Position numbers and translations under genes: made by a program
Notes under the pieces: generated by a model
Databases searched by the model: none
What the model saw: the letters and a program-made list of their open reading frames with translations, nothing else
What the model was told of the DNA's origin: nothing
Part shown: in pieces, positions 3,685-46,240 of the stretch
Layout: each line of letters opens with the position of its first letter
Position numbering within the stretch: position 1 is the first letter of the stretch
Source of the DNA: Minisyncoccota bacterium
GTDB taxonomy: Bacteria; Patescibacteriota; Minisyncoccia; Phycocordibacterales; UBA9973
Direction of reading: 5' to 3'
Length of the DNA: 64,000 bases
NCBI GenBank assembly: GCA_039915165.1
Contig: JBDSNU010000007.1
Span: 113,812 to 177,811, forward strand

Positions 3685-4552
3685 ATTCTTTCATTGACTT
3701 AATTATTTGTTTTGCAACAGCTTGAATTGCTGGAACTGCAACAGAATTTCCGAGCTGTTTCATCGCCTGAGCTTCTGAAACTGGAAATTGGTAGGTTTCA
3801 GGAAAACCCATCATTCTTTTACCTTCCTCAACTGTAATTCTTTTTGCCTTTCCATCTACTAAATAAGTATCCCAGTTTCTACGATCATGTAACCCAGATC
3901 CTCTTCCTCCAACACGTAATGTGTAACCAATATCTTTTTCACAATATGCGCCAAAAATATTAGACATGGTCATTGTTCTTTCTATTGGTTTTGGAAACTC
4001 AAATTTTATTTCTTTATTTTTAAAACCAATCATAAAAAGTCGCGCCCTATGTTGAGGAAGATTAAAGTCAGAAGCTCTAACTATTTTATAATAAAAAGAA
4101 TATCCCAGCTCTTCTTCAATAACTCTTTTTACTTCAGCGAAAGTATTACCGTTATCATGCTTTAAGAAGTGACTTACATTTTCAAGAAAAAATGCTTCTG
4201 GTCTTTTTTCTTTTAAGATTTTTACGATATCATAAAACAAAGTTCCTCGAACATCATCAAATCCTTTTTTCTTTCCCGCATGACTAAATGGCTGGCAAGG
4301 AAACCCTCCAGTGAGGATATTAAAATCGGGTATATTTTTAGGATCAACTTCTTTTATATCTCCAACAAAATTATTACCTTCAAAAATCCACGGTTCTTTC
4401 TTTTTGAAGTTTAGCTGATATGTTTCTCTTGCCTTTTGGTCCAGCTCAGATACAAAGACACATTCAGCTCCAGCATTTGAAAATGCAATATTAAAACCTC
4501 CAATACCCGCAAATAGATCTATAAATTTTATTTTAGAGTTATCTTGTTTCAT
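3668..4552 (-). CDS. DNA (cytosine-5)-methyltransferase.
   Basis: Motif I FAGIGGF, motif IV GGFPCQPFS and motif VI ENV (FFLENVSHF) are present. The C-terminal LGNSVAVP is also present. Confidence 0.85.
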   Translation of the reverse strand: MKQDNSKIKFIDLFAGIGGFNIAFSNAGAECVFVSELDQKARETYQLNFKKKEPWIFEGNNFVGDIKEVDPKNIPDFNILTGGFPCQPFSHAGKKKGFDDVRGTLFYDIVKILKEKRPEAFFLENVSHFLKHDNGNTFAEVKRVIEEELGYSFYYKIVRASDFNLPQHRARLFMIGFKNKEIKFEFPKPIERTMTMSNIFGAYCEKDIGYTLRVGGRGSGLHDRRNWDTYLVDGKAKRITVEEGKRMMGFPETYQFPVSEAQAMKQLGNSVAVPAIQAVAKQIIKSMKEYDKSK

Positions 4553-5659: not shown

Positions 5660-6862
5660 ATGCAAATATGCTATGGTTGTGGGTATATGAAGGAATTCAC
5701 ATTTTCTCAGCCGGTGAACATTGATACATTGCCGGCCACACTTTCCCAGCTAACCGGGTCACCGATAATTACTGGGGGCACTATCGATATATTAAACAAT
5801 GGTGATGAATTTTTTCCGTCACTATATACAGATCTCGAGGGCGCCAAAACTTCCATTGAGTTCAGTGTATACATTTGGAAGAAAGGTGTAGTAAGCACCA
5901 AAGTATGTAACCTTCTGATACAAAAAGCAAAACAAGGTGTACAAGTAAGACTATTACTTGATAGTTTTGGCGCACAACATACACCTGCAAATAAAATTGC
6001 TGAACTTAAAAAAGCAGGCGGAATGGTAGCGTGGTATCACCCGTTAAAATTTGGACTATTAATGAAGTTTTTCAAGCGTAACCATAGTCGATCTATCACG
6101 ATAGACAATACAATCTCATATACAGGGGGCATGGCAATTGCAGACTATTGGCTTGGTCATGCACAAGATAAGAATCATTGGAGAGATATCATGTTTCGCT
6201 TGAAAGGCCCCATCATCCATTCTGTTCAAGAGGCATTTACAAATATCTGGACTAGTGTTACCGGAGAAATACTTGTCGCTTCCCCCATCACTACACCGCC
6301 TGGAAATGAAATGCTTTCAATTGGTTATGTGAACGCATCTCCTGACCAAGATATGGAGCAACTATCTGCATTTTTCGCTACCACTATTGCTGCTGCCCGA
6401 GTATCAATAGATATTGTTACTCCTTATCTTATTCTTCAACCTCGGTTGAAAAAACAACTTATCAACGCAGTTCAACGAGGTGTGACAGTTCGCCTCTTAC
6501 TCCCCGGAAGATATATTGATTCAAAGATTGTGCAAGCAGCAAGTCAATATTCGTACAATGCATTACTCAGAGGCGGAATAAAAATTTTTGAATACAAGCC
6601 AACTATGATCCATGCAAAACTCTTGGTAGTTGATGGAGTATGGTCAATAATCGGTTCTGCCAATATCGACACGCGATCAACTTTTTATAATGTTGAAAAC
6701 AATATTGGTATAGCTGATGAGAAGTTTGCGGCCAAATTACAATCTATCATTCATGTTGAGATTACTAATGCTAGAGAAATTAAGGTCCGTAGATGGCAGC
6801 GTCGCTTTATATTTAGGAAAATCGCAGAATTTTTTGCTACCATTCCTGACGAGCAGTTTTAA
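5660..6862 (+). CDS. Phospholipase D / cardiolipin synthase family protein (ClsB-like, no TM segment).
   Basis: Second HKD motif is HAKLLVVDGVWSIIGSANID. The first motif is degenerate (NHSRSITIDNTISYTGGMAIAD). The alternative start is MKEF at 5687. Confidence 0.7.
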   Translation: MQICYGCGYMKEFTFSQPVNIDTLPATLSQLTGSPIITGGTIDILNNGDEFFPSLYTDLEGAKTSIEFSVYIWKKGVVSTKVCNLLIQKAKQGVQVRLLLDSFGAQHTPANKIAELKKAGGMVAWYHPLKFGLLMKFFKRNHSRSITIDNTISYTGGMAIADYWLGHAQDKNHWRDIMFRLKGPIIHSVQEAFTNIWTSVTGEILVASPITTPPGNEMLSIGYVNASPDQDMEQLSAFFATTIAAARVSIDIVTPYLILQPRLKKQLINAVQRGVTVRLLLPGRYIDSKIVQAASQYSYNALLRGGIKIFEYKPTMIHAKLLVVDGVWSIIGSANIDTRSTFYNVENNIGIADEKFAAKLQSIIHVEITNAREIKVRRWQRRFIFRKIAEFFATIPDEQF

Positions 6863-23898: not shown

Positions 23899-25173
23899 AT
23901 GATAGAAACTATGCCCGAGTGGGAATATTGGACTCTAGTGAGTTTAATTTCCCTTCTCATTTTATGGTACATTTCCAACTGTTTCAATACGGTTCGTGAA
24001 GGATGGCACTACAATATCGTACTCTTTGGCCGTTGGTCAAGAACAATCAGTGGTGTGAGAGATCGCATACCTGACAAAGAAGGCAATCTTATCGTCTGTG
24101 ATGGATGCAATACTGCAACGTGGTTTTTCATCTTTTATGGGGTGGAAAGAATTGCCAGCTACAGATTTCATTGGGTTGAAGGAATGGAGACAACTAAAAT
24201 TGATCCGAACGGAAATCCAGAGAATATTATTTGGGGCAAAACAAAAGATGATGCTTTGGTTACAGTACAACGCGATGAAATGACTACTCATCATAAAGAT
24301 CGTCACGACTACCGATTTCGTCTGAACGGCCTGGAAACAGGCAAAAAAGAAAATGAACCGGTAGATACTGATGTGGTAGAAAACGTTAAGATTAACACCT
24401 TATTGAATTCCACTATCCGAATGATGAACCCGTTCAAGGCACAATTTCGTTCGGGTGGTGATGCAGACTGGTATAACAGCCTTTATGCAACTATTACCGG
24501 TACCATGGGTGAAGTATTAGCTGACACAATTTATGCTGATCTCGGCGATTTACGCGGAGAGAAGCTGCAAAATGTGTTGGTAAAAAACACTGAACCTCAA
24601 GAAATTGCGGCTACTGATGCCAATACTCAGTCACATGAAATACTTTTTAAGGATAACAATGGTAAGCGCTCGGAGAAAATTACTTTCATTCAGCGTATTA
24701 ATTACGAAATGATGATAGTAAAAGATCTTGGCATTGAACTTGTTAACATTACAATGATGGATTTCGAGCCTGATGATGCATATAAAGGGTTTGTGGAAGC
24801 AATGCAGCGCCAAGCGATTTCGAGCGTAAATGTCAAAACCGCTGAAAACGATGCGCAAGCCCGGAAGAAAAAATTAGATGTGGAGAAGAATTATGCAATT
24901 GATATTCTCACCGCGTCTAAAAATGCAAAAATCGAGTTGAAAAAGACCGAGGATGTAACAGTAACGAAGAAAGCTCAACACCTAGCCAATTTGCGCGTAC
25001 TAGTAGAAAGTCAAAGTGGTATAAGTAATGACATTGGCACTGTCGATGTTAATAAACTTATCAATAACACGGTTTCATTAGACGTTGCAGAAGAAATTAG
25101 ATCCGAAAGCGATGACCAAGCTTCGCCACCACAAAATTCAAACAGACCAAATCAAAACAGAAGGAGAAATTAA
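23899..25173 (+). CDS. SPFH/band-7 (HflK/C-like) domain membrane protein.
   Basis: N-terminal TM segment. The region GIELVNITMMDFEPDDAYKGFVEAMQRQAIS...AENDAQARKKKLDVEKN is typical of the SPFH C-terminal and coiled-coil part. Confidence 0.45.
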   Translation: MIETMPEWEYWTLVSLISLLILWYISNCFNTVREGWHYNIVLFGRWSRTISGVRDRIPDKEGNLIVCDGCNTATWFFIFYGVERIASYRFHWVEGMETTKIDPNGNPENIIWGKTKDDALVTVQRDEMTTHHKDRHDYRFRLNGLETGKKENEPVDTDVVENVKINTLLNSTIRMMNPFKAQFRSGGDADWYNSLYATITGTMGEVLADTIYADLGDLRGEKLQNVLVKNTEPQEIAATDANTQSHEILFKDNNGKRSEKITFIQRINYEMMIVKDLGIELVNITMMDFEPDDAYKGFVEAMQRQAISSVNVKTAENDAQARKKKLDVEKNYAIDILTASKNAKIELKKTEDVTVTKKAQHLANLRVLVESQSGISNDIGTVDVNKLINNTVSLDVAEEIRSESDDQASPPQNSNRPNQNRRRN

Positions 25174-25175
25174 CA

Positions 25176-25898
25176 ATGAAACAATCGAGGATTCTCGCGT
25201 TTAAAAACCAGTTATTTGCAAAAGGAAATGTCTGGCTTCACAACAGTGATCTAAAAAGATTAGTAGTAGTAATTAGTATAGGAGTTATTCTTATACTAAT
25301 ACTGCGAGCTATTCTTATGAAAATCCCCAGCAGTGGCATAGGAATAAATGTTGGAGGTATACTATTAATTGCCATTTGTTTATTGGCACTCGGAATTATC
25401 TTTGGAAAATATCTGAAAAAAATTACACTGGCAAAATTACTTTGGTGGAAGAAAAATTCTTCCACTCCCTCTTCTGTTGCAACAGGTGCTGCAATACCCA
25501 CAAAGAAAACTTGTGGTAGTAATTGGGCTAGTAATTTACTTAAGTTTGCATTTGCAGTACTAGTATTAGTTATAGCTGCTTATTGGGGCATAACTAGTTA
25601 CCGCACTGTAATTGTTGAAGGTGAGGGCTCAATACCTAGAACGCCGGCAATGCTTGGAATAAGAGATTCAACAAATCCTTACACTGAGTACACGCAAATT
25701 TATGTTAGTGGTACACCATATCACTTTCAGAAAAATGTCTATTACTTATATCACCACACTGGGACAGATTTCTTTTTTAAAGGTACTACTGGCATGAAAG
25801 AGCAATTTAAATTTGTTAATAAAGGCCGTGGTTATTATTTAATTAAATCTGTCATCGCTGATGATGTTATGGTAACAAGTTACGACACTAGTGACTAA
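25176..25898 (+). CDS. Hypothetical membrane protein (3 TM plus a C-terminal soluble domain).
   Basis: Good RBS (aggagaaattaacaATG). Hydrophobic N-terminal half. Confidence 0.45.
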   Translation: MKQSRILAFKNQLFAKGNVWLHNSDLKRLVVVISIGVILILILRAILMKIPSSGIGINVGGILLIAICLLALGIIFGKYLKKITLAKLLWWKKNSSTPSSVATGAAIPTKKTCGSNWASNLLKFAFAVLVLVIAAYWGITSYRTVIVEGEGSIPRTPAMLGIRDSTNPYTEYTQIYVSGTPYHFQKNVYYLYHHTGTDFFFKGTTGMKEQFKFVNKGRGYYLIKSVIADDVMVTSYDTSD

Positions 25899-25918: not shown

Positions 25919-25949
25919 AAAGCCGCTCATATTTATGAGCGGCTTTTTT
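25919..25949. terminator. Intrinsic terminator.
   Basis: aaagccgctcat-attt-atgagcggcttt followed by a T run. Confidence 0.6.
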
Positions 25950-25989: not shown

Positions 25990-26334
25990 TTATTTAGGAT
26001 ACTGCAATTCCGTAATAGTTGGCGGAACAAATGTTTGTTGCTTGCTATTGAGCGTTAAGCCCGTAACACCAACTGTGTTGCCGAGAATGGTAATAATACC
26101 AAACACTCCAAACATGATTACAAACCCTACGATGCCCCACAACATATGATCCTTCCCTTCCTGACGCTTATCTTTGTCAGCAGCATTGCTGATGAATTGA
26201 AAGACGCCCCAAATGAAGACAACGAATGCAATAATGAATGCTCCTTCGATGGCGGGATTGATAATGTTGATATTTATCTTATACAACACTGTATCCAGCG
26301 CATCAGGACCTTGTGTAGCGGCGTAGGCAAACAT
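25990..26334 (-). CDS. VirB2/TrbC-like two-TM module protein, a putative T4SS-type pilin family member (paralog 1, module only).
   Basis: TM1 FIIAFVVFIWGVFQFI, a basic loop KDKRQEGK and TM2 WGIVGFVIMFGVFGII. The module is shared with four adjacent paralogs. Confidence 0.5.
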   Translation of the reverse strand: MFAYAATQGPDALDTVLYKININIINPAIEGAFIIAFVVFIWGVFQFISNAADKDKRQEGKDHMLWGIVGFVIMFGVFGIITILGNTVGVTGLTLNSKQQTFVPPTITELQYPK

Positions 26335-26340
26335 TGAATG

Positions 26341-26748
26341 CTATTGAAGGAATCCAGTAGTAGTACCACAAGTACCTGCAGTAGGATTGTATGTCAAACC
26401 TGGAGGACAAGTAACAGCTGGAGATCCAGACATTGTATCAACACCAGTAATTGTTCCTGCTAGGTGAATGATGCCCCATACAGCAACTGACACGAATAGA
26501 CCGATCAATCCATTGATCATAGCCTTGCGAAGATCAGCAACCTTAGATGCATCTGTGTTCATAATGAAACGAAGCACATTGTACAAGAAGAATACTGTCA
26601 TCAAGATAGTAAGAACTGTAACTGCTAAACGCAAGTATACAAGCCCTTGGCCTACGAATGAGTTGATATAGTTAAAGTTTTGCGCGAAGGCAACTGCGGG
26701 CAAAAGAACTGCTGATAGTGCACTAACATTAAAAACTGCTTTTTTCAT
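26341..26748 (-). CDS. Secreted VirB2/TrbC-like module protein with a Cys-containing C-terminal tail (paralog 2).
   Basis: Signal peptide MKKAVFNVSALSAVLLPAVAFA. Module LRLAVTVLTILMTVFFLYNVLRFI...GLIGLFVSVAVWGIIHL. Tail CPPGLTYNPTAGTC. Confidence 0.5.
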   Translation of the reverse strand: MKKAVFNVSALSAVLLPAVAFAQNFNYINSFVGQGLVYLRLAVTVLTILMTVFFLYNVLRFIMNTDASKVADLRKAMINGLIGLFVSVAVWGIIHLAGTITGVDTMSGSPAVTCPPGLTYNPTAGTCGTTTGFLQ

Positions 26749-26831
26749 AATAAATTAATTATTTACTTTATCCTGGTTAAGTACAGGTATAATAAAAAGT
26801 ATACCACGAAAAGCTATTGTCTAGCAGTGGA

Positions 26832-27728
26832 TTACTTTGATGCCTTACTATTACTGAGATAGTCGGTCTGTAGGACAGGGACAGTATTATCAAGACCTAA
26901 TGTAGTGGTAGCAATTTTTATAATTCCCCACACTGATACCATAACGAATAAGCCAATCAGACCCATATATATGAACTGTTTACTTTCTTGCTTGTCTTTT
27001 TGTTCAGAGGATCGGATGAATTTAAATACACCCCACAAGAAAACAACGAATGCCAACGTGAAGATACCAGGGATTATTACTGCTCCAATAATACATTTCG
27101 CCCAGATTGCAATATCTAACAATGTTTTAAATTTGGCACTACATGATTGTGCTGCTTGCATGTCTGTAGCGGTTGCCGCCAATCCTGCACCTGATCCAGT
27201 ATTGTATGCAGTACTACTGCCACCATTGAGAGGATTGGTTGTTTGTGAGCCGCCTACTTGCTGGGAAGTAGCTGAGGGATTGTAGTAATAATATTGCTGA
27301 CAGGCAGCTACCATCGTATCAGTTGTTGCATTGGTACAACAAGTACTAGCATTACCATCTGTTATGGTAGCGCAACTACTTTGGGTTTGAGCAGTAGTGG
27401 TTGATGGGGCACGGTTTGCACATGCATCTGCATAGGTATATGAGTTGGCGCCATAACAACAGGTAGAGTAATTATCATTAGTAACATTACTACAACTGAT
27501 TGCAGTGTTGGTTGTAGCTGGTGTGGTGGTAGTAGTTGTAGGATTCGCTTTTTCATATTCAGAACATTGCATGCTATTTGCAGCAACTCCCTCACCGCCA
27601 ACGGACTGAACACAACAAGATTGATAATTAGCACTAGTGACCGGCTGACATGAATCCGCAGCCTGAGCTGTAGGGAGGATAGAAACCAATGAAAGTACTA
27701 ATATAATTGCAGCAAGTATTTTTTTCAT
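26832..27728 (-). CDS. Secreted Cys-rich repeat ectodomain protein with a C-terminal VirB2/TrbC-like module (paralog 3).
   Basis: A signal peptide is present. Three degenerate repeats of NY-x-[ST]-CC type occur (SANYQSCCV, NDNYSTCCY, DGNASTCCT). The C-terminal module is FVVFLWGVFKFIRSSEQKDKQESKQFIYMGLIGLFVMVSVWGIIK. Confidence 0.55.
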   Translation of the reverse strand: MKKILAAIILVLSLVSILPTAQAADSCQPVTSANYQSCCVQSVGGEGVAANSMQCSEYEKANPTTTTTTPATTNTAISCSNVTNDNYSTCCYGANSYTYADACANRAPSTTTAQTQSSCATITDGNASTCCTNATTDTMVAACQQYYYYNPSATSQQVGGSQTTNPLNGGSSTAYNTGSGAGLAATATDMQAAQSCSAKFKTLLDIAIWAKCIIGAVIIPGIFTLAFVVFLWGVFKFIRSSEQKDKQESKQFIYMGLIGLFVMVSVWGIIKIATTTLGLDNTVPVLQTDYLSNSKASK

Positions 27729-27732
27729 ATTA

Positions 27733-28173
27733 TTAATTTACTATATTGTTAACTGTTCCAACAATAGCATTGGTAAGCGTCCAAGCACCCAGGATAAGCA
27801 GAGTTCCGATGACTGTGTAGAAGAACATATTCTTTGCTACCTTCATCTTCTCTGGATTGCCGCGAGCAAAAATAAACTGTAGGCCTGTCCAAATAAACAT
27901 AAGGATGATCAATGGTAATGCAATGCGAATGACAATGCTTAAAATTTTATTAATGGCTTCGGGTATGGTACTTATTCCACTTAAGGGATTGTTGAGATGG
28001 ATATTTAATGCAGAACCTGATGATACAGGAGCCCCATTTCCAGGGGAAGGAGTTGCGCTATTTCCTCCATTCCCAGGAGAAGGTGTGGTTGCGGCCTGCA
28101 CAGAAAGAGTCATTACAAAAAACAATACTATTGCTGAAAGTGAACCGAGATATTTTTTCATATTTTTAATCAT
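27733..28173 (-). CDS. Secreted Pro/Gly-repeat protein with a C-terminal VirB2/TrbC-like module (paralog 4).
   Basis: A signal peptide is present. The tandem repeat is TPSPGNG-x5. The module is LPLIILMFIWTGLQFIFARGNPEK...TVIGTLLILGAWTL. Confidence 0.5.
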   Translation of the reverse strand: MIKNMKKYLGSLSAIVLFFVMTLSVQAATTPSPGNGGNSATPSPGNGAPVSSGSALNIHLNNPLSGISTIPEAINKILSIVIRIALPLIILMFIWTGLQFIFARGNPEKMKVAKNMFFYTVIGTLLILGAWTLTNAIVGTVNNIVN

Positions 28174-28176
28174 ATA

Positions 28177-29052
28177 TTATTTTTGGAAGAAGTATAAATC
28201 GTCATGATATCCTAGTACTGAAATAATAGTGCGCACTATCACCCATGCACAAAGCATGAGCAACAGTCCAAGTACGAGATGCTTCGCCATACTGCCGAGT
28301 TTGGCATGCTGACCAGGCTTACCCATGGCCGCAATATAACTATAGCCGAGATACATTATCATGATGATTACCAATGGTAACAAGATAGTATTAAAAAAGA
28401 ATGACATGATATTATTCGCCAACTGCAATAGAGAGTTAAGATCACATTCGTCCCCTGCTCCACCATCACAAGGAATAAGCCCCATGCCTTTACTACTAGA
28501 AGATGATACAGGAACTAATGGTGGAATAGTACCATTTGTTATTGTGGTTGAAGATTGATTTGGTGTTGATGTTGAAGCTGGAATAACAGCCGGCGTTTGA
28601 GTTTGCTGAGTCGCAAGCCCAGCACCAGAAGTTGTCGCAACAGCTGCTTTTGTAGTGAAATCACAGTCAGTTATTGCTTCGGTAGTGTTAGATGATTGAG
28701 AAGTAGGGATAACAAAAACGCTATAACTAGTTAATGGCTTCAGATTATGAAAACCGTAGTTCTGCTGAGTATTGTACGATGCAGGACTTATCACATCCAC
28801 TGGTTTCAAATTTTTTTTATCATCTACATCTGCTATAACGAAACCTGCATTACTAAAAGTATATGTGGTGGTATTTTGCTTAATAGTTAGTACAGCTAAA
28901 TCAGGCCTTATGTCCTTTGCAATACATGAAAAACTGGCTGCGTGTATCTTCTGAGTAGGTATAGCTACAAGTGCCGCAAAAATAAACAGGTGAAAAATCT
29001 TAATGCCAAAAACATTTTTATTGAGCAGTTGTTTGAAGGTCGCGTGTTGCAT
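28177..29052 (-). CDS. Secreted protein with a roughly 200-aa ectodomain and a C-terminal VirB2/TrbC-like module (paralog 5).
   Basis: Signal/anchor segment. Ser/Thr-rich linker. A CDGGAGDEC motif precedes the module LLPLVIIMIMYLGYSYIAAMGKPGQHAK...LGLLLMLCAWVIV. Confidence 0.5.
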   Translation of the reverse strand: MQHATFKQLLNKNVFGIKIFHLFIFAALVAIPTQKIHAASFSCIAKDIRPDLAVLTIKQNTTTYTFSNAGFVIADVDDKKNLKPVDVISPASYNTQQNYGFHNLKPLTSYSVFVIPTSQSSNTTEAITDCDFTTKAAVATTSGAGLATQQTQTPAVIPASTSTPNQSSTTITNGTIPPLVPVSSSSSKGMGLIPCDGGAGDECDLNSLLQLANNIMSFFFNTILLPLVIIMIMYLGYSYIAAMGKPGQHAKLGSMAKHLVLGLLLMLCAWVIVRTIISVLGYHDDLYFFQK

Positions 29053-30307
29053 TGTCGATTGCTGTTTGCGTATCAGTAGTATTACTGTTTACGTTATTAA
29101 TCATATCACGGAAGATCGTATTGGTACTAGCAGGATTGGGGTCTGGCCATGAGAATGCAGAGAGTGCTGATTGGAAAAAAACTGAAACATATGGATTGCT
29201 TTGCGCTAGCTGTAATAGGTCACGGCGCACTGGTGGTAATGAAAATTGTTTTGACAATGCATCAATACTTGCACTAGTTGCCAGCTGACTTGCAGCAGCA
29301 TACGCAGCAATAGCATTCGGTGCTTTGGCCATTATACCTACTGCCAATATTGATCCGTATGTTGTACCGCGACCTGTTGCAGAACTTTGAAACATTTGTG
29401 ACACATCGAAATTAAGATTGGGGTTTTGGGATTGGATTTGAAACAACTCACTAGCGCGACCGATATAAAATGCAGACTTCCCAGCCAAGAAATTTTGGAG
29501 GCTTTCAGGCAAAGAACTATTCCATGTGTAGTTGTCTTTGGTAGGGTTGGCAAAACTAGTGTAATAATCCAACGCTTGCACTGCTGCAGGTGTTTCCGTA
29601 GCACTACTGCCATTATTTAATACCACTTTTTGATTGACGATAATTGGATTGCCTGTTTGCAAAAATAATGTTGAGAGAATATCTCGCGCATGCAAAATAT
29701 TATTTGCTTCGCCCAGCGCAACAGTGCTCTGAGTAATCTGTCGTTTAGCATCACGACGAGTAAGTACTGGAATAGCCGCCTGCAAATCACTCCATGTTTT
29801 CGGTGGTACTAAAAAGTTTCGAGAAGCCAATATATCTTTGTTGTAATACACAACAAGTGGATCTACGAGTAGCGGCAATGCGCCGATACCAGTACTGGAC
29901 AAGAAAAACTGTGCACCATCAATGTTGGTATCGCGATACTGTCGCTCAGTATATGCACTAAAAGGTATGGTGTAGAGCTTACTACTGAGTTGAGCGTATT
30001 GCTCAGAATTAATCATGACCAAATCTGGTGATTGACCATTTGCTAGTGCAGTAATAATCTCCTGATAAAACGTTACGGCTTTGTGCTGACTATAATCAAG
30101 TGTGTAGCCATAATTTTCACTATTAAAGTTGTCGACAAACTTTTGCATATCAGCATACGGGATCACACCCCATACAACAACGGTACCTGTGGGAGTGGTG
30201 GATGCTGTTTTACTAGAGGATGAAAAAAGCCCTGAGAAAACTGCAATTGCAATGACAAAGCCAACAATAAATACAACAATGAGAATGGTTTGAAATGATG
30301 ACTTCAT
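29018..30307 (-). CDS. Extracellular solute-binding protein (ABC-type, family 1-like), TM-anchored, with no adjacent permease or ATPase.
   Basis: N-terminal TM anchor, and SBP-like periplasmic-binding fold signatures across 429 aa. Confidence 0.5.
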   Translation of the reverse strand: MKSSFQTILIVVFIVGFVIAIAVFSGLFSSSSKTASTTPTGTVVVWGVIPYADMQKFVDNFNSENYGYTLDYSQHKAVTFYQEIITALANGQSPDLVMINSEQYAQLSSKLYTIPFSAYTERQYRDTNIDGAQFFLSSTGIGALPLLVDPLVVYYNKDILASRNFLVPPKTWSDLQAAIPVLTRRDAKRQITQSTVALGEANNILHARDILSTLFLQTGNPIIVNQKVVLNNGSSATETPAAVQALDYYTSFANPTKDNYTWNSSLPESLQNFLAGKSAFYIGRASELFQIQSQNPNLNFDVSQMFQSSATGRGTTYGSILAVGIMAKAPNAIAAYAAASQLATSASIDALSKQFSLPPVRRDLLQLAQSNPYVSVFFQSALSAFSWPDPNPASTNTIFRDMINNVNSNTTDTQTAIDNATRDLQTTAQ

Positions 30308-36384: not shown

Positions 36385-36996
36385 ATGGAACAAACAACAG
36401 AACACCAGACTCCCTCTCCAGAAATAGCCCCGCGGAAGACTTTTTTCCAAACTGGCCTTGGAAAGTTTATTGAAAATGTTCTTTATATCATTGGCGCAGT
36501 TATTTTTGCTGCAATTATCCAAGCGTTCCTTATTCGTCCTTTTATTGTAAGCGGTACATCAATGGACCCTGTGATCAAAAACGGTCAGTACCTTATTATT
36601 GATGAAGTAACCTACCATATCCATACACCTGAGCGTGGCGATGTGATCGTTTTCAAGGCACCACCAGAACCAAGCAAGTACTACATCAAACGTGTAATCG
36701 GCCTACCAGGAGATACCGTGAAGATCAAAGACGGTAAGGTTACTATTGTTAATACTGCACATCCAGATGGATTTACATTGAATGAACCTTATCTGACTCA
36801 CCTTTCAAACGATAATGGAACATTCGTTGTTACTCAAAATAATTACTTTGTGATGGGAGACAATCGTACTGGAAGTTACGACTCTCGATCATGGGGTATG
36901 CTGCCTATTGAAAATATCCGTGGGCGTGCAGTGCTACGACTATTACCAGTAAATACCGTAAGTGTATTACCAGGAAAAGAAACATATGAGTACTAA
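36385..36996 (+). CDS. lepB: Signal peptidase I.
   Basis: SGTSMDP (Ser), KRVIGLPGD (Lys) and GDNRTGSYDSR boxes are present. Confidence 0.85.
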   Translation: MEQTTEHQTPSPEIAPRKTFFQTGLGKFIENVLYIIGAVIFAAIIQAFLIRPFIVSGTSMDPVIKNGQYLIIDEVTYHIHTPERGDVIVFKAPPEPSKYYIKRVIGLPGDTVKIKDGKVTIVNTAHPDGFTLNEPYLTHLSNDNGTFVVTQNNYFVMGDNRTGSYDSRSWGMLPIENIRGRAVLRLLPVNTVSVLPGKETYEY

Positions 36997-41762: not shown

Positions 41763-42602
41763 TTAATCAGGCAAGAATCCACCTGACTGCATTTTCCATA
41801 AATGAGCATACTTTCCATTCTGTTGAAGCAATTCTTCATGCGTACCATCCTCAACAATTTTTCCACCTTCCACAAATACAATACGGTCCATTGATTGAAG
41901 TGTCGAGAGTCGGTGAGCAATAGCAATGACTGTCTTCCCTTTCATTAGAATGGTTAATGCTTCTTGTACCTTTCCCTCACTTTCGCTATCAAGGGCACTC
42001 GTTGCTTCATCGAGAATAAATAGCGGGCTGTTCTTAAGTATGGCTCGAGCAATTGCAATACGCTGTCGTTGTCCACCCGAAAGCTTCACGCCCCGTTCAC
42101 CGACAACAGTGTTGTAGCCTTTTGGCAATGTTGAAATAAAGTCATCGGCATAGGCCATCTTTCCTGCTTGTTCGACTACTTCTCTTGAAGCCTCGGATGA
42201 GCCGTAGCGAATGTTTTCAGCAATCGTCGTATGGAAGAGCGATGTATCCTGAGAAATAAAAGAAATATGAGAACGGAGAGAATCTTGGGTCATTGTTGTT
42301 ATATCCACATCATTAATTTTTATTGTTCCACTTTGTGGGTCAAAGAACCTCAATAAAAGATTTATCGCCGTAGTCTTTCCCGCGCCGCTCAAGCTTGGCT
42401 TGAAGCCGCATAGCAGATGAACGTGGTCACCGTCGGTGCCGATGGCTTCGAACTCGATGTCGTAGCGTTCCTGGATGGAGCGGGAAATCTCCAGAATCGC
42501 TCTGTCTATCCGTGGCGTCAGCAGCGCCTTGCGGTACTTTAACGGAAAGACTATGTGATAGTGGGTGTCGTACGTGCTGTGGTTTGCGCTCTTGTTCGCC
42601 AT
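41763..42602 (-). pseudogene. Chimeric ORF. An IS200/IS605 TnpA N-terminal fragment (about 64 aa) is fused in frame to the C-terminal nucleotide-binding domain of an ABC exporter whose TMD is missing.
   Basis: The N-terminus HYHIVFPLKYRKALL...GDHVHLL matches the TnpA HuH motif. Walker A is LSGAGKTT, the signature is LSGGQRQRIAIARA, Walker B is ILDEATSALD and the H-loop is IAHRLST. GC content changes sharply at about 42405. Confidence 0.7.
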
Positions 42603-42700
42603 GGTTCGAGTCTATATGAAAACCTTAGGTTTTCATACTTTCCGAAAAGGAAACCCCGCAGCAAGCTGCGGGGAATTTGGGGGTTTAAAGACTAATATAA
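42410..42700 (-). mobile_element. IS200/IS605-family remnant: left-end hairpin plus the 5' part of tnpA.
   Basis: The subterminal hairpin ccccgcagc-aa-gctgcgggg lies upstream of the tnpA start. The segment is high-GC relative to its flanks. Confidence 0.55.
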
Positions 42701-42815
42701 CATCTAAATCTTTTACTTCCTGATATCTATTTTTTACCTCATCAAATAGTTCTTTGTATCTTTCAAAACCAACATTCATAGATTAATTATTATATAAATT
42801 GTACGTCTTAATGTA

Positions 42816-43103
42816 TTAGGACAGGTGAACCAATCGCTTATCCGTGATGGTTTTATGAAGCTTGTCGCGCTCGATTGTTCGCGCTATTTCAGGTATTCCT
42901 AGAGCTGAGGATGGAATATCACAAATCATATTACCGTGAAGATCAATGATCGCTCCTTTTTGAACAAGCGTGGTCTCGTTCCAAAAAGAATCGCCAAGAT
43001 TAAATTTTTGCATGATTCGCAGACCGTTACCATTCTTGTCCTGAAACACTGAAGACGTTTCTGTGCCATGCAGCGTCCGTTCCACTGCGCCTCCAACAGG
43101 CAC
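42816..43103 (-). pseudogene. Orphan C-terminal fragment of a paralog of the 43367-43996 gene (low GC).
   Basis: It shares the SSVFQ[DG]K[ND]G segment and a 28-bp near-identical nucleotide patch with the upstream gene. Confidence 0.45.
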
Positions 43104-43366
43104 GCGCTGTATTTTATGCGGGAGCGTCGTACTCCACTACTGCATGACACCAGATATATTTTTTTAATATGTATCCTTCACGCACCACCCTGACGCAGAC
43201 CTCGACCTGCGCCAATCCCGATGTGATCGGATAGAAACCTTCGCCCGAAGCCGTGACCGCAGGCATGTCAAAAATCTCGGCTTTAGTATATCAAAATAAA
43301 ATTAAACGCAAAAAGAGCCCAAGGTACAAAGTATCCAAGGGCTCAATAGTTTTAGAGGCAAAATCC

Positions 43367-43996
43367 TCAAGGTTTTTCTGCGAGAAACATCCAGTCAACG
43401 TCAGCAAACCAGTGGCCATCAACAACCACCAGGCTAAGCCTGCGCCTGCCATCGTCACGACTGACGCACAGGAAGCAACGGCGACCATCCTTGCCCTGAA
43501 ACACTGAACTTTCAGCGTTTTCTGCGGCGACAAAGTCTTTGCCGGCAAGTTCTGCGGGAAGCTTGTTTTCGGGAACGGCAGCCATGGCACCGGTTAAGTA
43601 GTTTGGTGCACTTTTGCATAAGGTCAGGCCGAACTTGTTCACGTACGCTTCCTCGTCGCCACTGTCCACGTTTTCGGTGACAGGGACGAAGTAGATGCGC
43701 TTTGCGCCAGCTGCTTCCAGTAACGGAATGCGGTCGTGATCATCGCTGATCCAATCGTACACGCTGTCGTAGTTTCCTTTCTCGATCGCCAGAGCGATGT
43801 TATTAATCGGATCTACAACAACAGAATACAAATCCTGAATCTTCGCTTCGCGGTCGGCCAATAGCTTGCCGAGGTTTTTCAGATCGTCTTCGGTGAGGAA
43901 TTCGATCGCTTTGTCGGAACCTTTGGCGTCCGTGATTCCTTGCCTCACCAAGACTGCGTAGTCTGAGTCGGCAATGATAAGAATTGTTTCGGGCAT
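43367..43996 (-). CDS. Hypothetical protein in the high-GC island. The probable start is MPETILIIADSDYAV at 43996; the ORF track extends it to 44134.
   Basis: 210-aa ORF at about 52% GC. No confident family assignment. Confidence 0.4.
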   Translation of the reverse strand: MPETILIIADSDYAVLVRQGITDAKGSDKAIEFLTEDDLKNLGKLLADREAKIQDLYSVVVDPINNIALAIEKGNYDSVYDWISDDHDRIPLLEAAGAKRIYFVPVTENVDSGDEEAYVNKFGLTLCKSAPNYLTGAMAAVPENKLPAELAGKDFVAAENAESSVFQGKDGRRCFLCVSRDDGRRRLSLVVVDGHWFADVDWMFLAEKP

Positions 43997-44155
43997 TAGT
44001 ATGTTTTTACAGTGTTTTGAAAAGAAATACGTTTTTAGTATCATAGCATGAATTGAGTATAAAGTCAATGATTTAAAGGCTATGCCCAAAAAGCCTCGTT
44101 TTTTCGCCACGACTACACATTTTCCCCGATCCAAGCTAAGGTACCCAAACCTTCC

Positions 44156-44623
44156 TTAACAAAGCCCCATGCCTCCATTCTCCCTCACCCAGTCCACCCA
44201 CACGTCAAAGTCCCTGTTATTCTCCATGATCGCAAGCGACCTGATGACCGCCATCGCAAACGCATCGGCCAGGTCGTCATGTCCCTCGATGCCAAATCCG
44301 GTCAGTTGGCTGACGAGCTCCTCCGCGCCATGCCTCGGGAACTGGATAATTCCTGTCTGTATGTAGTGCGAGGTCATGGCAAGGCGCGAGCGCTTGTCGG
44401 TCGTGTTCTTCACGCCTTCCACCTGTACTCCTGATCCAGAGAGCTGGTCCGCATAGATTTCCTGAAAGCCGTTCGACTCGATCACCACCAACGGTTCCAT
44501 GTCATACGGCAGGTTCTTTGCGAGCATCCGTATCGTCCTCGTTGTTTCGGGATACGGCATTCGCTTGTTGATTGGATTTGGCAGGATGTACATTTTGATG
44601 TCCCTGTCCTTCTGATGCAGCAC
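44156..44623 (-). pseudogene. Phage terminase large subunit C-terminal nuclease domain fragment (ATPase domain missing).
   Basis: The C-terminal HDDLADAFAMAV motif and RNaseH-like nuclease domain pattern are present. Only 155 aa remain. Confidence 0.55.
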
Positions 44624-44680
44624 GCCCGTGACGACTGCCGAACAGTGCGGTCTTTGCCGATACTCAACAGCAAATCAGCG

Positions 44681-45085
44681 CTAGGATTCTTCATGATGTT
44701 CTTCGGACACAATGCCCGCCAATTTCAATGCCTGCTCGACCAATACCTTTTGTTCCGGAGACATCTCGTGAATGGTTTCCAATCTTCCATCAATCTGTAC
44801 CTTTGTTTTGTAGTCGCCATGGTGGTGCTTGAGCCAGTACATGATCGCAGCCAGATTACGATCCTTGACCGCGCCGATGAGCTGGGACTCTGCCACGTCA
44901 TTGATGAGCAAGCGTCCTTCGCTGACTGCCTGGTCGGCTGATGTGGCGAATGCCTCGTCCTCCGCTTTCCATCGGTAAAAAGTTGCTCGTGAGATATCGA
45001 GCTTTTCGCAGGCGATCTGAACAATCGGTGTTTTCCGCAGTTGCTCCAGAAGCAGAGCTTTGTTTTCTTCGGTGGTTTTATTCAT
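44681..45085 (-). CDS. Phage terminase small subunit-like HTH protein.
   Basis: IACEKLDISRATFYRWKAEDEAF is the HTH typical of terminase small subunits. The gene sits directly upstream of the terminase large fragment. Confidence 0.55.
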   Translation of the reverse strand: MNKTTEENKALLLEQLRKTPIVQIACEKLDISRATFYRWKAEDEAFATSADQAVSEGRLLINDVAESQLIGAVKDRNLAAIMYWLKHHHGDYKTKVQIDGRLETIHEMSPEQKVLVEQALKLAGIVSEEHHEES

Positions 45086-45638
45086 AGAGCAATGTGGGCT
45101 GTATCTTCGTCAGTTTCTCAAATCGATCCATGACGGTCTGGCAGTATTCAATATCAAGCTCGACTCCAAGACACACTCGGTGGGTTTGTTCGCACGCAAT
45201 GAGTGTTGAACCGCTCCCAAGAAAGCAGTCGTAGACAACTTCATTAATATTTGTGCTGTTGAGAATGAGATTCCGCAGAAGCGGTATCGGCTTCATGGTC
45301 GGGTGCAGACTGCTTTTCGTCGGGCGAGGATAGAAGAGATCGCACCAGACGAAGACATGCGTATCCATCTTTGAAATCTCCAAGCCGTTGCCGATTATGT
45401 TCTTCAGAAATGTTTTGTACTCATCGTCGGGCTTGCTGTCATCGACTGACCCGCCATAGTGCTGCCTGCGTCCGACGCCCTTGTTGTAGTCGAGAGAGAT
45501 GTTGTACGGCGGGTCGAAGTACAGCATGGAGACGTTCACGCAGGTGCTTTCTTTTTGTTCGAGGCGAACCCCGGCAATGCTGTTACCGGGGTTGGGAGCA
45601 AATAAAAAAGCTCCATCCTTTACCCAACCTCGTTGCAA
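45078..45638 (-). pseudogene. Phage-type N6-adenine/N4-cytosine DNA methyltransferase (beta-class order: DPPY before FxGxG), probably N-terminally truncated.
   Basis: Motif IV is LYFDPPY and motif I is CFLGSGSTLIA. High GC. Confidence 0.6.
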
Positions 45639-45639
45639 G

Positions 45640-45877
45640 AGAGCTGGAAAAATCAGGAATGGTTATAGAACGACTGGAGCCATGGAAAGGCAAAGTTACA
45701 TTCAAAGATGTGGGGGCCCTTGTATTTATGCTCAAGGCTGTGCCATGGACTGTAGGTGATTTCAGTGTCATTAAACACCGAGAGGTATTAGAAAAGCTAA
45801 AAAAAGATATTGATAAGAACGGAAAATTAACTTTTGCTGAGAGTAAGTATTTAATAATTGCAAAGAAAAAAGTCTAG
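45640..45877 (+). pseudogene. C-terminal remnant of a native class I SAM-dependent methyltransferase, cut by the high-GC insertion.
   Basis: The low-GC tail ...ERLEPWKGKVTFKDVGALVFMLKAVPWTVGDFSV resembles the C-termini of type-11 methyltransferases. The upstream part of the ORF is out of context and high-GC. Confidence 0.45.
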
Positions 45878-45895
45878 TTTCCTGCTAGTAAAGTC

Positions 45896-45923
45896 TTTCG
45901 AACATCGTCCAGGGTTCGGAGCA
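45896..45923. repeat. Copy 1 of a 27-28 nt imperfect-palindromic direct repeat.
   Basis: tttcgaacatcgtccagggttcggagca. Confidence 0.85.
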
Positions 45924-46240
45924 CTTGACAATGTATTTAAAATACATATTGTTTATATGGGACTCAAAAACAGTTAGTATATTTAAAGAACTTAATGGCA
46001 TGTTAATCTCGACATGGTCATTAATTAGTAAGGCGGTTCTTACCCTTTTGCCAAAAGTATGCTCAATCAATGAGCGAAATTGAAAATAAAGGATTCTTTA
46101 GGCGCCTCTTAGAGAATTTCTTTGAGATTAAAGAAATTAAAATAGATAAGGAGAATAATCTGTCCTGTCTATTCCCTCGGTTACCACAAAGCCCACCTCT
46201 CACAATGTGATGTTAAGGGCTTTTTTATTTGACCAAGCAG

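Follow-up and report, generated by a model that had tools for sequence, protein, structure and literature searches.

An array of five pilin-like genes follows a solute-binding protein gene

The window, the 64-kb stretch of DNA analysed here, is a piece of the chromosome of a Candidatus Paceibacterota/Nomurabacteria MAG. The host, a Patescibacterium with an ultrasmall genome, goes by the source names Ca. Paceibacterota, Ca. Nomurabacteria and Minisyncoccia. In a Ca. Paceibacterota MAG g5 corresponds to ABIO57_03260, and the closest genomes are Ca. Nomurabacteria. Five adjacent minus-strand ORFs (g1 to g5) occupy positions 25990-29052, each with a two-helix hairpin of about 75 aa, which confirms the array described in an earlier note on this DNA. 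The features considered below are:

25919..25946, strand not assigned: terminator-like hairpin, 12-bp stem with 6 G-C pairs
25990-26334, minus strand: g1, last-position pilin, 114 aa, hairpin at aa 16-97 (PF18895 match)
26341-26748, minus strand: g2, position-4 pilin, 135 aa, hairpin at aa 28-106 (PF18895, 24.2 bits, E 4e-5)
26772..26806, minus strand: promoter-like conserved element in the g3-g2 gap (alignment of 13 loci)
26832-27728, minus strand: g3, position-3 pilin, 298 aa (PF18895 below gathering, positional orthologs)
27733-28173, minus strand: g4, position-2 pilin, 146 aa (PF18895 and PF04956 above gathering)
28177-29052, minus strand: g5, position-1 pilin, 291 aa (PF18895 27.9 bits, AlphaFold2, ortholog alignment)
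29018..30307, minus strand: solute-binding protein (SBP) gene, 429 aa, SBP_bac_8/SBP_bac_1 (Pfam E 2e-22 and 1e-19)
36385-36996: LepB (signal peptidase) gene

The genes are tightly packed. The SBP stop overlaps the longest g5 ORF by 35 nt, and the junctions in the window are of 20 nt or less except for the g3-g2 gap, which measures 83 nt here and 70-91 nt in the 13 loci aligned. This gap contains a near-invariant TGnTATACT (TG at 26805-26806, TATACT at 26798-26803) followed by CCTG (26784-26787) and CAGG (26772-26775), a 4-bp stem for which the alignment gave no covariation. The TGnTATACT looks like an extended -10 promoter element and precedes the last two genes, g2 and g1, which it may serve. 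A bidirectional terminator-like hairpin lies between the stops of g1 and of a convergent gene encoding a 240-aa membrane protein, where, as a predicted terminator, it delimits the operon. In total, the region has no more terminator-like sites than expected by chance; the placement of this one is what is informative.

The five genes share a VirB2/TrbC-type hairpin

The assignment of the common module to the VirB2/TrbC pilin superfamily, proposed in the earlier note, is borne out by profile searches. Pfam PF18895 (T4SS_pilin) is matched by all five genes (E = 6e-8 for g1, 4e-5 for g2, 3e-3 (0.0026) for g3, 1e-11 for g4 and 2e-6 for g5), with g1 (33.0 bits), g4 (45.0) and g5 (27.9) above the gathering threshold of 26.6 and g2 (24.2) and g3 (18.2) below it. 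The TrbC profile PF04956 is in addition matched by g4 (30.6 bits, gathering 27.9), for which NCBI's own name is 'TrbC/VirB2 family protein'; its relatives are named either so or 'pilin'. For g2 and g3, below the PF18895 threshold, the link to the family comes from the common architecture of the module and from positional orthology. Against an HMM built from the five modules, g3 itself among them, g3 scores 105 bits; positional orthologs in relatives support g3 independently of this score. Apart from the five genes, the 64-kb window has no ORF that matches this HMM. Among extended relatives, 73 of 78 match PF18895. Weaker matches were obtained to the 'pilin-like' families of monoderm conjugation NF045849 and NF045890; thus, g1 reaches 37.4 bits (cutoff 40) against NF045849, 'Mbov_0395 family pilin-like conjugal transfer protein'. 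We conclude that g1-g5 are a tandem set of divergent VirB2/TrbC-type pilin genes, of which g4 is the most canonical VirB2-like member.

Hydropathy places two TM segments in the module of each gene, as had been claimed. The loop that joins them, said to be basic, is clearly so only in g4 and g5 (net charge +3), the loops of g1-g3 being of mixed charge (0 to +1). AlphaFold2 models a helical hairpin in g4 (70-102/107-145, pLDDT ~95) and in g5 (205-241/246-279). When the hairpin was compared to the PDB with Foldseek, the best match had an E of 1.1 and the archaeal conjugation pilus of A. pernix (8dfu) an E of 7.8; a bare helical hairpin is too simple a fold for structure searches to separate VirB2 hairpins from other helical hairpins. 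A profile search against PDB sequences returned 0 matches.

Members differ in their termini and outer domains

Read from sequence only, g2-g5 carry predicted signal peptides with n-h-c regions and AxA-type sites (AFA↓QN in g2, TAQA↓AD in g3, SVQA↓AT in g4 and KIHA↓AS in g5, where the peptide spans ~1-38). A full signal peptide is lacking in g1, which, like its orthologs, has only a conserved ..(I/F)AYA(D/A) stub; it carries no ectodomain and has a conserved C-terminal QTFxPPxI motif. The C-terminal tail of g2 is conserved (TCPPG...C, Cys114 and Cys127), and g2 orthologs keep both this tail and a constant length. In g3, three copies of C-x10-CC-x11-15-C (aa 27-143, nt 27300-27650; cysteines 27/38/39/55, 79/90/91/103 and 119/130/131/143) and a low-complexity linker accompany the hairpin module at aa ~200-280 (nt 26889-27131). 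In g4, TPSPGNG occurs twice within a disordered Pro/Gly/Ser spacer, alongside a conserved NPL motif and the hairpin (aa 70-145, nt 27739-27966). Finally, g5 combines an FN3/Ig-like beta-sandwich of ~95 aa (aa 41-133, nt 28654-28932), identified with AlphaFold2 and Foldseek, a disordered Ser/Thr-rich linker of ~65 aa (aa 140-203), the hairpin (aa 205-279, nt 28216-28440) and a conserved GLIPCDG..C motif. Foldseek matches of its ectodomain in the PDB are the RsgI4 sensor domain (E 5e-5), insulin-receptor FnIII and FN3 domains. The five unlike ectodomains listed in the earlier note stand for g1 (none), g2 (Cys tail), g3 (Cys-rich triple repeat) and g4 (Pro/Gly repeat), and the globule of ~200 aa ascribed to g5 resolves into the beta-sandwich and the disordered linker.

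The SBP gene and the array form a conserved unit

Among related loci, 61 offer 3.5 kb or more of downstream sequence, and in all 61 the SBP gene lies directly upstream of a pilin array, with a median gap of 2 nt. The arrays have 4-7 pilin genes, 5 of them in 44/61 loci, and positional orthology follows the order 5-4-3-2-1 or 5-4-3-3-1. The SBP has an N-terminal TM anchor, ahead of which F5, Q6 and T7 are invariant. Far from being the 'orphan' of the earlier note, it is the sole invariant partner of the array. The neighbours named there fare differently: the SPFH-like and 240-aa membrane protein genes are not conserved with the array, and the former (23899-25173) has no Band_7/SPFH match in Pfam even at E<=1.

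Across ~100 loci, the recurrent neighbours are a methyltransferase and GyrA upstream and the pilins downstream, with no permease or ATPase among them. No BPD_transp or ABC_tran gene adjoins the SBP gene in the window, which does not follow the operon pattern of an SBP-dependent ABC importer, although an importer may be encoded elsewhere. The block S1-MBL-GyrA-MT-SBP-array is syntenic in the lineage, and the adjacency of SBP and array may therefore partly reflect general synteny; in one locus (L093), the SBP-array unit is retained amid a different gene context.

Comparison across relatives showed gain and loss of ectodomains at positions 1-3. These are FN3, PKD, TIG and Cys-rich repeats, with an SLT lytic transglycosylase in a single case. 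Among 78 extended members, a census counted fn3 in 4, PKD in 2-3, TIG in 1 and SLT in 1, the last being a pilin-SLT (VirB1-like) fusion at position 1. In the closest relative, the g5 ortholog is without the FN3 domain and linker, and genomes whose GyrA proteins are 95% identical can differ in whether they have the FN3 domain. Many genomes have only bare hairpins of ~80-160 aa as all their 4-7 members, and other members of the family have 2-17 hairpins fused in one polypeptide.

T4SS core genes are not found near the array

Pfam scans of large ORFs and phmmer searches with pCF10 PrgH/I/J/K/L/PcfC detected no homolog of VirB4, VirB6, VirB3, VirB8, VirD4 or VirB1 in the 64-kb window or in the 8.6 kb to its right, nor any within ~10 kb of the array in ~100 related loci. 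The earlier statement that no VirB4, VirD4 or VirB6 lies within 15 kb thus extends to the whole window and beyond. As a consequence, the link of the array to a T4SS machine rests on homology and on other lineages. Patescibacteria pilin genes were found near virB4 in only 1,135/1,948 assemblies (PMC12102498), and in the part of the published Table S1 that was covered, 19/20 Nomurabacteria assemblies are VirB4-positive.

Comparison with known systems

Patescibacteria arrays of divergent VirB2-like genes were described in 2023-2025 (PMC10633639, PMC12102498, PMC12857230), together with their T4SS, so the 'uncharacterised' apparatus of the earlier note has published counterparts. The survey reports 441 arrays of 2-11 genes in 383 assemblies, with a mean identity of 25% and a maximum of 54%; since such arrays are published, the kind found here is already known. 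Named precedents are the Southlakia epibionticum ML1 cluster SEML1_0006-0019, an essential pilin series within a T4SS cluster (PMC10633639, PMC12857230), and the 'Sec-secreted array' of TM7x. Ours shares with them the phylum, PF18895/PF04956, the tandem arrangement (five contiguous genes here, 4-7 in relatives), the low mutual identity (8-45%, mean 23%), a chromosomal location and the absence of a nearby relaxase. It differs in lying away from a virB4 cluster, welded to an SBP gene beside gyrA, in its fixed five-gene order conserved across Paceibacteria and in the modular nature of several members, with FN3 or Cys-rich ectodomains. The survey found arrays most abundant in Microgenomatia and Saccharimonadia and does not mention an SBP (PMC12102498). 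What is new here is thus the array following an SBP gene in fixed ortholog order, with swappable adhesin-like outer domains on some members.

Like the diderm pilins (Agrobacterium VirB2, F TraA, RP4 TrbC), the present proteins are small and have two hydrophobic helices and a short charged loop, with a signal peptide predicted in g2-g5. Solved structures of the F and T pili have both termini on the outer face and the loop lining the lumen, and the ectodomains found here would accordingly sit outside. The differences are considerable: the present host is a monoderm, five paralogs are co-encoded where those systems have one major pilin, some members carry large N-terminal ectodomains, VirB4, VirB5 and VirB6 are not adjacent, cyclisation or lipid binding is without support, and no solved structure is matched by sequence or fold. 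The core T4SS machine of Patescibacteria is itself related to Gram-positive MPF-FATA systems (PMC12102498). PrgF (of the Enterococcus pCF10 T4SS, an MPF-FATA system) and the NCBIfam Mbov_0395 and pLS20_p028 families are likewise small two-TM hairpins of monoderm conjugation loci. With PrgF as phmmer query against 7,451 ORFs, weak matches to g1-type pilins were obtained (best 1.2e-5); hhalign gave a probability of 2.5%, PrgF did not match PF18895 in Pfam, and g4-type profiles matched neither PrgF nor PrgG. Homology of PrgF to the present pilins is not established.

Modular type IV pilins such as PilB of Streptococcus sanguinis also join a conserved pilin module to an adhesive or enzymatic domain displayed on the filament (PMC8179133), but they belong to an unrelated filament system (class III signal peptide, PilD processing), whereas the module here is of the VirB2 hairpin type.

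A proposed modular pilus or stalk of mixed composition, and rival explanations

On balance we favour the view that the locus is a chromosomal, vertically inherited Paceibacteria operon of an SBP gene followed by the genes of five ancient T4SS-pilin paralogs, and that these pilins would form a modular pilus or stalk of mixed composition, assembled by a T4SS whose genes lie elsewhere. Of the readings considered, it is the most likely. Export, insertion and assembly can be proposed partly from sequence, while display on a shaft and the part of the SBP are more conjectural. The products of g2-g5 would leave the cytoplasm by the Sec pathway, and signal peptidase would cleave them at their AxA-type sites. 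The hairpins would insert with the short charged loop in the cytoplasm and both ends outside the cell, so that any N- or C-terminal extension would be extracellular. The Patescibacteria T4SS (VirB4/TrsD/VirB3/VirB6-like), with its genes at another place in the genome, might then take subunits from the pool in the membrane and assemble them into a mixed pilus or stalk. The short, constant members g4, g2 and g1 would form the shaft, g2 and g1 possibly under their own conserved promoter-like element. Members at positions 1-3 would act as modular pilins, their exchangeable domains, binding or enzymatic, being displayed on the filament for host-cell contact; these are FN3 and Cys-rich repeats here and PKD, TIG or SLT lytic transglycosylase in relatives. 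The co-transcribed SBP would probably bind a glycan or sugar from the host at this interface. The surface filament or adhesin for host attachment suggested in the earlier note is in keeping with FN3, PKD and TIG domains at the same positions in relatives; the interpretation given in that note is, as a whole, partly supported. Points counting against a T4SS-built pilus are the sub-threshold scores of g2 and g3, the non-basic loops of g1-g3 and the lack of a normal signal peptide in g1. A pilus of this kind has not been seen in any Patescibacterium, and PMC12857230 speaks only of the 'potential to elaborate conjugative pili'.

It is conceivable, though rather unlikely, that the five hairpin proteins work independently of any T4SS, as a hetero-oligomeric membrane or surface complex with the SBP for nutrient capture or attachment, the VirB2 fold having been co-opted for use outside the secretion machine. 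By analogy, this would resemble the archaeal 'bindosome', in which pilin-like proteins keep sugar-binding proteins at the surface. T4SS core genes adjoin the array in 0 of ~100 loci and the SBP gene always does; the two stay together when surroundings differ, the F-Q-T motif at the SBP anchor is invariant, and 2-17 fused hairpins per polypeptide are hard to reconcile with a classical polymerising pilin. However, synteny may explain part of the adjacency, and T4SS pilin genes away from virB4 are common (PMC12102498). Moreover, homologous arrays of Saccharibacteria lie inside a T4SS cluster and are essential along with it (PMC10633639), one relative's module is fused to a VirB1-like SLT, a T4SS-type accessory, and the unit encodes neither an assembly ATPase nor an ABC permease. 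Alternatively, unrelated surface proteins (adhesins, enzymes) might merely share a two-TM anchor in a monoderm without sortase-type anchoring, forming no filament or common complex. The attachment of FN3, PKD, TIG, SLT and Cys-rich repeats to the same module, with both termini predicted outside, would suit such display. We nevertheless regard it as improbable: where all 4-7 members are bare hairpins there is nothing to anchor, it is the hairpin that is conserved, with subfamily motifs (NPL, GLIPCDG..C, TCPPG..C, QTFxPP), and the ectodomains that are dispensable, and the constant paralog order implies that the members function together.

Several divergent tandem VirB2 copies also occur in the T4SS loci of Bartonella and Anaplasma phagocytophilum, host-dependent bacteria like this one, where their presumed role is in antigenic variation or host range (an analogy drawn in PMC12102498, whose discussion raises host-range versatility). 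A similar set for antigenic or phase variation, in which the expressed pilin is swapped with silent variants or paralogs alternate with hosts, could account for the divergent tandem paralogs and for ectodomains differing between close relatives. We consider it very improbable here, the pattern of orthology having largely refuted it. Genomes with GyrA only ~60-70% identical keep a positional ortholog of every paralog, in unchanged order, all five ORFs are intact in one tight operon, and the paralogs split into two deep subfamilies with different conserved motifs. Nor are there nucleotide repeats between the five genes to drive recombination, the sole similarity being a 39-nt stretch (85%) between g1 and g3. 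The 'pilin cassette set' of the earlier note does not fit, because dozens of genomes carry same-order positional orthologs and such repeats are absent; the fixed order over deep divergence speaks for five members with a structural role each, and against antigenic variants that can replace one another. That the array is an assembly or annotation artefact, made of collapsed or duplicated repeats or of chance ORFs, has a negligible probability. The five genes are old paralogs with unrelated nucleotide sequences, and the same five-gene arrangement recurs in two independent Logan assemblies, the NCBI MAG and ~100 other contigs.

A shared pilin module in five adjacent genes

Five adjacent minus-strand genes were claimed in the earlier note to share one hairpin module, and ORF, Pfam and hydropathy analyses bear this out. 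The genes follow, in order of position, directly on that of a membrane-anchored solute-binding protein (SBP):

SBP gene: 29018-30307, minus strand; 20 nt from the methyltransferase gene
g5 (position 1): 28177-29052, minus strand, 291 aa; overlaps the SBP gene by 35 nt (longest ORF)
g4 (position 2): 27733-28173, minus strand, 146 aa; 3 nt from g5
g3 (position 3): 26832-27728, minus strand, 298 aa; 4 nt from g4
g2 (position 4): 26341-26748, minus strand, 135 aa; 83 nt from g3
g1 (last position): 25990-26334, minus strand, 114 aa; 6 nt from g2

The module (~75 aa) carries two transmembrane (TM) segments, and hydropathy profiles reveal an extra N-terminal hydrophobic segment in g2-g5. AlphaFold2 models contain a long helical hairpin in g4 (residues 70-102/107-145, pLDDT ~95) and in g5 (205-241/246-279). 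The basic loop said to connect the two helices is found in g4 and g5, not in the other three members. All five proteins match PF18895 (T4SS_pilin), with g1, g4 and g5 exceeding the gathering score, and g4 also passes PF04956 (TrbC/VirB2). Sub-threshold NCBIfam matches (NF045849 and NF045890) are to 'pilin-like' or transmembrane families of monoderm conjugation systems. The Pfam results uphold the proposed pilin homology: the module does belong with the VirB2/TrbC family. This is already publicly annotated, g4 being named 'TrbC/VirB2 family protein' by NCBI and its relatives 'pilin'. Comparison of the hairpin with solved pilins, by fold and by sequence, gave no significant match, which is uninformative rather than negative. 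An HMM built from the five modules found no sixth copy in the window, and the module profile matches 37,633 cluster representatives in a library of 1.84 billion proteins.

Identity among the five modules ranges from 8 to 45% (mean 23%), and a single 39-nt stretch is the only nucleotide repeat among the five genes. Low module identity and the near-absence of nucleotide repeats mark g1-g5 as old paralogs rather than assembly duplicates; with nothing repeated beyond that stretch, an assembly artefact is ruled out.

Operon anatomy

Sigma-70 and terminator scans of the region gave overall counts not above chance. From the terminator scan, we retained as evidence only the strong hairpin past g1, and the one long intergenic gap of the array, between g3 and g2, was analysed by alignment:

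Hairpin downstream of g1: 25919-25946; 12 bp, common to g1 and the convergent gene
Element in the g3-g2 gap: 26772-26806, minus strand; contains TGnTATACT at 26798-26806

This gap measures 70-91 nt in 13 aligned loci. TGnTATACT is near-invariant within it (also in the related loci L004-L020) and resembles an extended -10 element. It probably marks a separate internal promoter for the constant pilins g2 and g1. A CCTG...CAGG pair past TGnTATACT was considered as an RNA structure and rejected, since it forms 4 pairs only and shows no covariation.

The SBP-array unit across genomes

Related loci were collected using the SBP as a handle: 21 came from genomes and 80 from metagenomes, with SBP identities between 34% and 88%. 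Sequence reaches at least 3.5 kb downstream in 61 loci, and in every one of these the SBP gene leads directly (median gap 2 nt) into a run of 4-7 module genes; 44 loci have five. The unit lies in a syntenic block, S1-MBL-GyrA-methyltransferase-SBP-array-(variable)-RbfA-IF2, from which the methyltransferase is missing in several loci; at locus L093, SBP and array are surrounded by RecJ, ComEC and a GDSL lipase instead. The unit also lies on three near-complete contigs, ERZ1292629.1 (~700 kb, L121), Ga0209417_1000014 (506 kb, L106) and DASWWS010000001.1 (364 kb, L008).

In closer relatives, the best match of each window gene occupies the same array position. In all loci the order is g5-type, g4-type, then 2-5 members of the g3/g2/g1 subfamily, the pattern being 54321 in 25 loci and 54331 in 16. 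Each type carries its own conserved motif: GLIPCDG..C in g5-type members, NPL preceding helix 1 in g4-type members, a TCPPG..C tail in g2-type members, and an '..AYA' stub with a QTFxPP tail in g1-type members. A fixed paralog set and order over deep divergence suggests a mixed filament with distinct subunit roles, not antigenic variants. We therefore rejected antigenic variation, against which the lack of nucleotide repeats and the fixed positional orthology both speak.

In the N-terminal anchor of the SBP (aa 1-30), F5-Q6-T7 (MKSSFQTILI...) is invariant in orthologs down to 38% identity, which is unusual in a plain signal anchor. There is a loose similarity to class III (prepilin-like) leaders, although neither the Gly at -1 nor the Glu at +5 is present.

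Variable outer domains

The ectodomains, i.e. the extensions beyond the module, differ from gene to gene. As first described, g2 has a Cys tail (TCPPG...C, C-terminal) and g3 a Cys-rich triple repeat (three C-x10-CC-x11-15-C units); a short duplicated TPSPGNG lies inside a disordered spacer of g4. The supposed large globule of g5 turned out to be a beta-sandwich of ~95 aa (AlphaFold2, pLDDT 83-95) followed by a disordered Ser/Thr linker. In the PDB, the sandwich is closest to the RsgI4 sensor domain (E 5e-5) and to FnIII domains.

Across genomes the variability is concentrated at array positions 1-3, where lengths span 113-572, 107-477 and 91-345 aa, respectively; at position 4 and the last position length is almost constant. 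In the closest relative (GyrA 95% identical), the g5 ortholog keeps the N-terminus and module and is missing the FN3 domain and linker. By similarity, the 85 extensions form 26 clusters, which are common to different array positions. Pfam domains detected in 78 extended members were fn3 (4), PKD (2-3), TIG (1) and SLT (1). The SLT case is the first gene past the SBP at locus L153 (8892-10010; JGI Ga0568922_0004633), which joins a VirB2-like hairpin (aa 43-110) to a lytic transglycosylase domain (aa 225-328; PF01464, E 3e-19). As lytic transglycosylase is a VirB1-type activity of T4SSs, this protein is in effect a fusion of VirB2-VirB1 type. Outer domains of the FN3, PKD, TIG and SLT kinds, gained and lost, are candidate determinants of host specificity. 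In many genomes all members are bare hairpins. A role of the hairpin as a pure membrane anchor is a weak explanation at best.

Genomic setting and search for T4SS core genes

The g5 protein is identical to ABIO57_03260, encoded on a 192-kb contig of a Candidatus Paceibacterota bacterium MAG (NCBI), and the nearest genomes are Ca. Nomurabacteria MAGs. Genes around the array are housekeeping (IF2, RbfA, tRNAs, GyrA, S1, Pth, LepB, HisS, Def, Fmt, ClpB, GltX), which places the locus on the chromosome rather than on a mobile element.

The absence of VirB4, VirD4 and VirB6 nearby, reported from the sequence alone, was confirmed on a wider scale. Pfam searches of all large ORFs in the window gave no homolog of VirB4, VirB6, VirB3, VirB8, VirD4 or VirB1, and no core gene occurs in the 8.6 kb to the right, which encode LysE, RNase HII, DnaE and SecA. 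Six-frame ORFs of the window and ~105 loci (1.46 Mb) contained no T4SS core gene when searched with the proteins of pCF10, an Enterococcus plasmid with an MPF-FATA T4SS. No ATPase is found among the large recurrent neighbours of the array, and no VirB4 on the contigs of more distant pilins (short contigs or one archaeal contig).

Between the array and the tRNA cluster, two plus-strand genes (23899-25898) occupy a variable slot. One encodes a 424-aa protein with an N-terminal TM segment and a coiled-coil-like part, the other a 240-aa membrane protein with three TM segments. The former had been taken for an SPFH protein; Pfam gives no SPFH match. Neither was accepted as part of the system, being present in 5 and 0 of ~100 loci, respectively. 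In other genomes the slot holds different genes of 370-485 aa with, by eye, a TM-like N-terminus and then a charged coiled-coil-like region.

Relation to known pilin arrays

In a survey of 3,035 Patescibacteria genomes based on PF04956 and PF18895, Quinonero-Coronel et al. 2025 (PMC12102498) detected VirB2-like pilins in 1,948 VirB4-positive assemblies, in 1,135 of which they lie near virB4, as well as 441 arrays of 2-11 pilin genes (mean identity 25%). Such arrays are what distinguishes the T4SS of Patescibacteria from other monoderm T4SSs; this T4SS is essential in the one species tested, and its function is described in the literature as completely unknown. PF18895 is also reported to predominate among the Pfam domains of freshwater-specific protein clusters, attributed to Patescibacteria. 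Since this kind of feature is already described, the present locus adds an example and reveals no new kind of system. SBP linkage, fixed paralog order and swappable FN3/PKD/TIG/SLT heads are modest new details; the accessible literature makes no mention of an SBP partner of pilin arrays.

The family may also extend to less expected proteins. PrgF (pCF10 prgF, L160 19545-19772), a 75-aa two-TM protein of the Enterococcus MPF-FATA T4SS, gives weak phmmer matches to g1-type pilins (best 1.2e-5) and an hhalign probability of 2.5% with the g1 profile. It has no PF18895 match, and hhalign of the g4 profile against PrgF or PrgG gave nothing. Monoderm T4SSs are usually stated to be without VirB2-like proteins; if the PrgF/g1-type relationship were true, they would not lack them. 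The family does include single polypeptides with 2-17 tandem hairpin modules (P0122, P0116, P0117 and P0127). The largest, P0122 (L159 10001-15328, GCA_975902405.1), has 17 modules in 1,775 aa, and its host is probably an archaeon, as ribosomal protein L39e is encoded on the same contig. Unless they are processed, such proteins do not seem to fit the behaviour of a simple polymerising pilin.

Possible functions

Beyond the established family membership, hairpin architecture, operon structure, orthology pattern and ectodomain folds, a function can be proposed by analogy with VirB2/TraA pilins. Both termini of g1-g5 would lie outside and the loop inside; subunits would be pulled from the membrane and polymerised by a VirB4-containing machine, and the ectodomains displayed on the filament exterior. 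In such a filament, g4, g2 and g1 would be shaft components and g5 and g3 modular host-contact subunits; at this contact, the SBP may bind glycans of the host. Being an invariant partner, the SBP may link the filament with the capture of nutrients or glycans. In the leading alternative, SBP and array function independently of a T4SS. That reading draws on the lack of core genes near any of ~100 arrays, on the strict SBP linkage and on the polypeptides in which 2-17 modules are fused. VirB4 is present in 19 of the 20 Nomurabacteria assemblies in part of a published Table S1, and virB4 of Paceibacteria is mostly situated near dnaA.

It is also conceivable, though we consider it improbable, that the SBP and the fixed set of about five VirB2-like paralogs form one undescribed machine, a hetero-oligomeric stalk capturing host surface glycans or nutrients. 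It might be built in five-fold layers like those of known conjugative pili, with one paralog at each position. It could carry, or cooperate with, the sugar-binding protein and exchangeable FN3, PKD, TIG or SLT heads, and could be either T4SS-independent or a dedicated second use of the T4SS. If true, the unit would belong to the conserved core genome in a large part of the Paceibacteria. Patescibacteria account for a large fraction of uncultured bacteria and are attached to host cells in life. Should the SBP link be no more than synteny, the locus would be an ordinary, already annotated case of a very common family.

Other features of the window

Further genes were noted outside the array:

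2602-4552: complete HpaII-type restriction-modification pair, RE_HpaII (E 4e-108) and C-5 cytosine methyltransferase
5660-6862: PLD-type phospholipase, 400 aa
8567-12148: 1,193-aa protein with an LCAT-like lipase domain and a beta-helix
41763-46000: region of G+C 0.47 (vs ~0.40)
57278-58456, minus strand: 392-aa ORF matching PagL (lipid A 3-O-deacylase; E 7e-13, above gathering)

In the region at 41763-46000, one ORF has the N-terminus of an IS200-like Y1 transposase joined to an ABC ATPase domain. A transposase HTH ORF and a truncated N6/N4 DNA methylase are also present there, and the stretch probably represents a degraded mobile element or foreign DNA. A PagL ORF is unexpected in a phylum considered monoderm and without LPS; this one also matches an outer-membrane beta-barrel below threshold. 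The PLD-type phospholipase and the LCAT-like protein, encoded near each other, may be tools for host-lipid scavenging; an LCAT-domain protein is also encoded near the array at locus L111.
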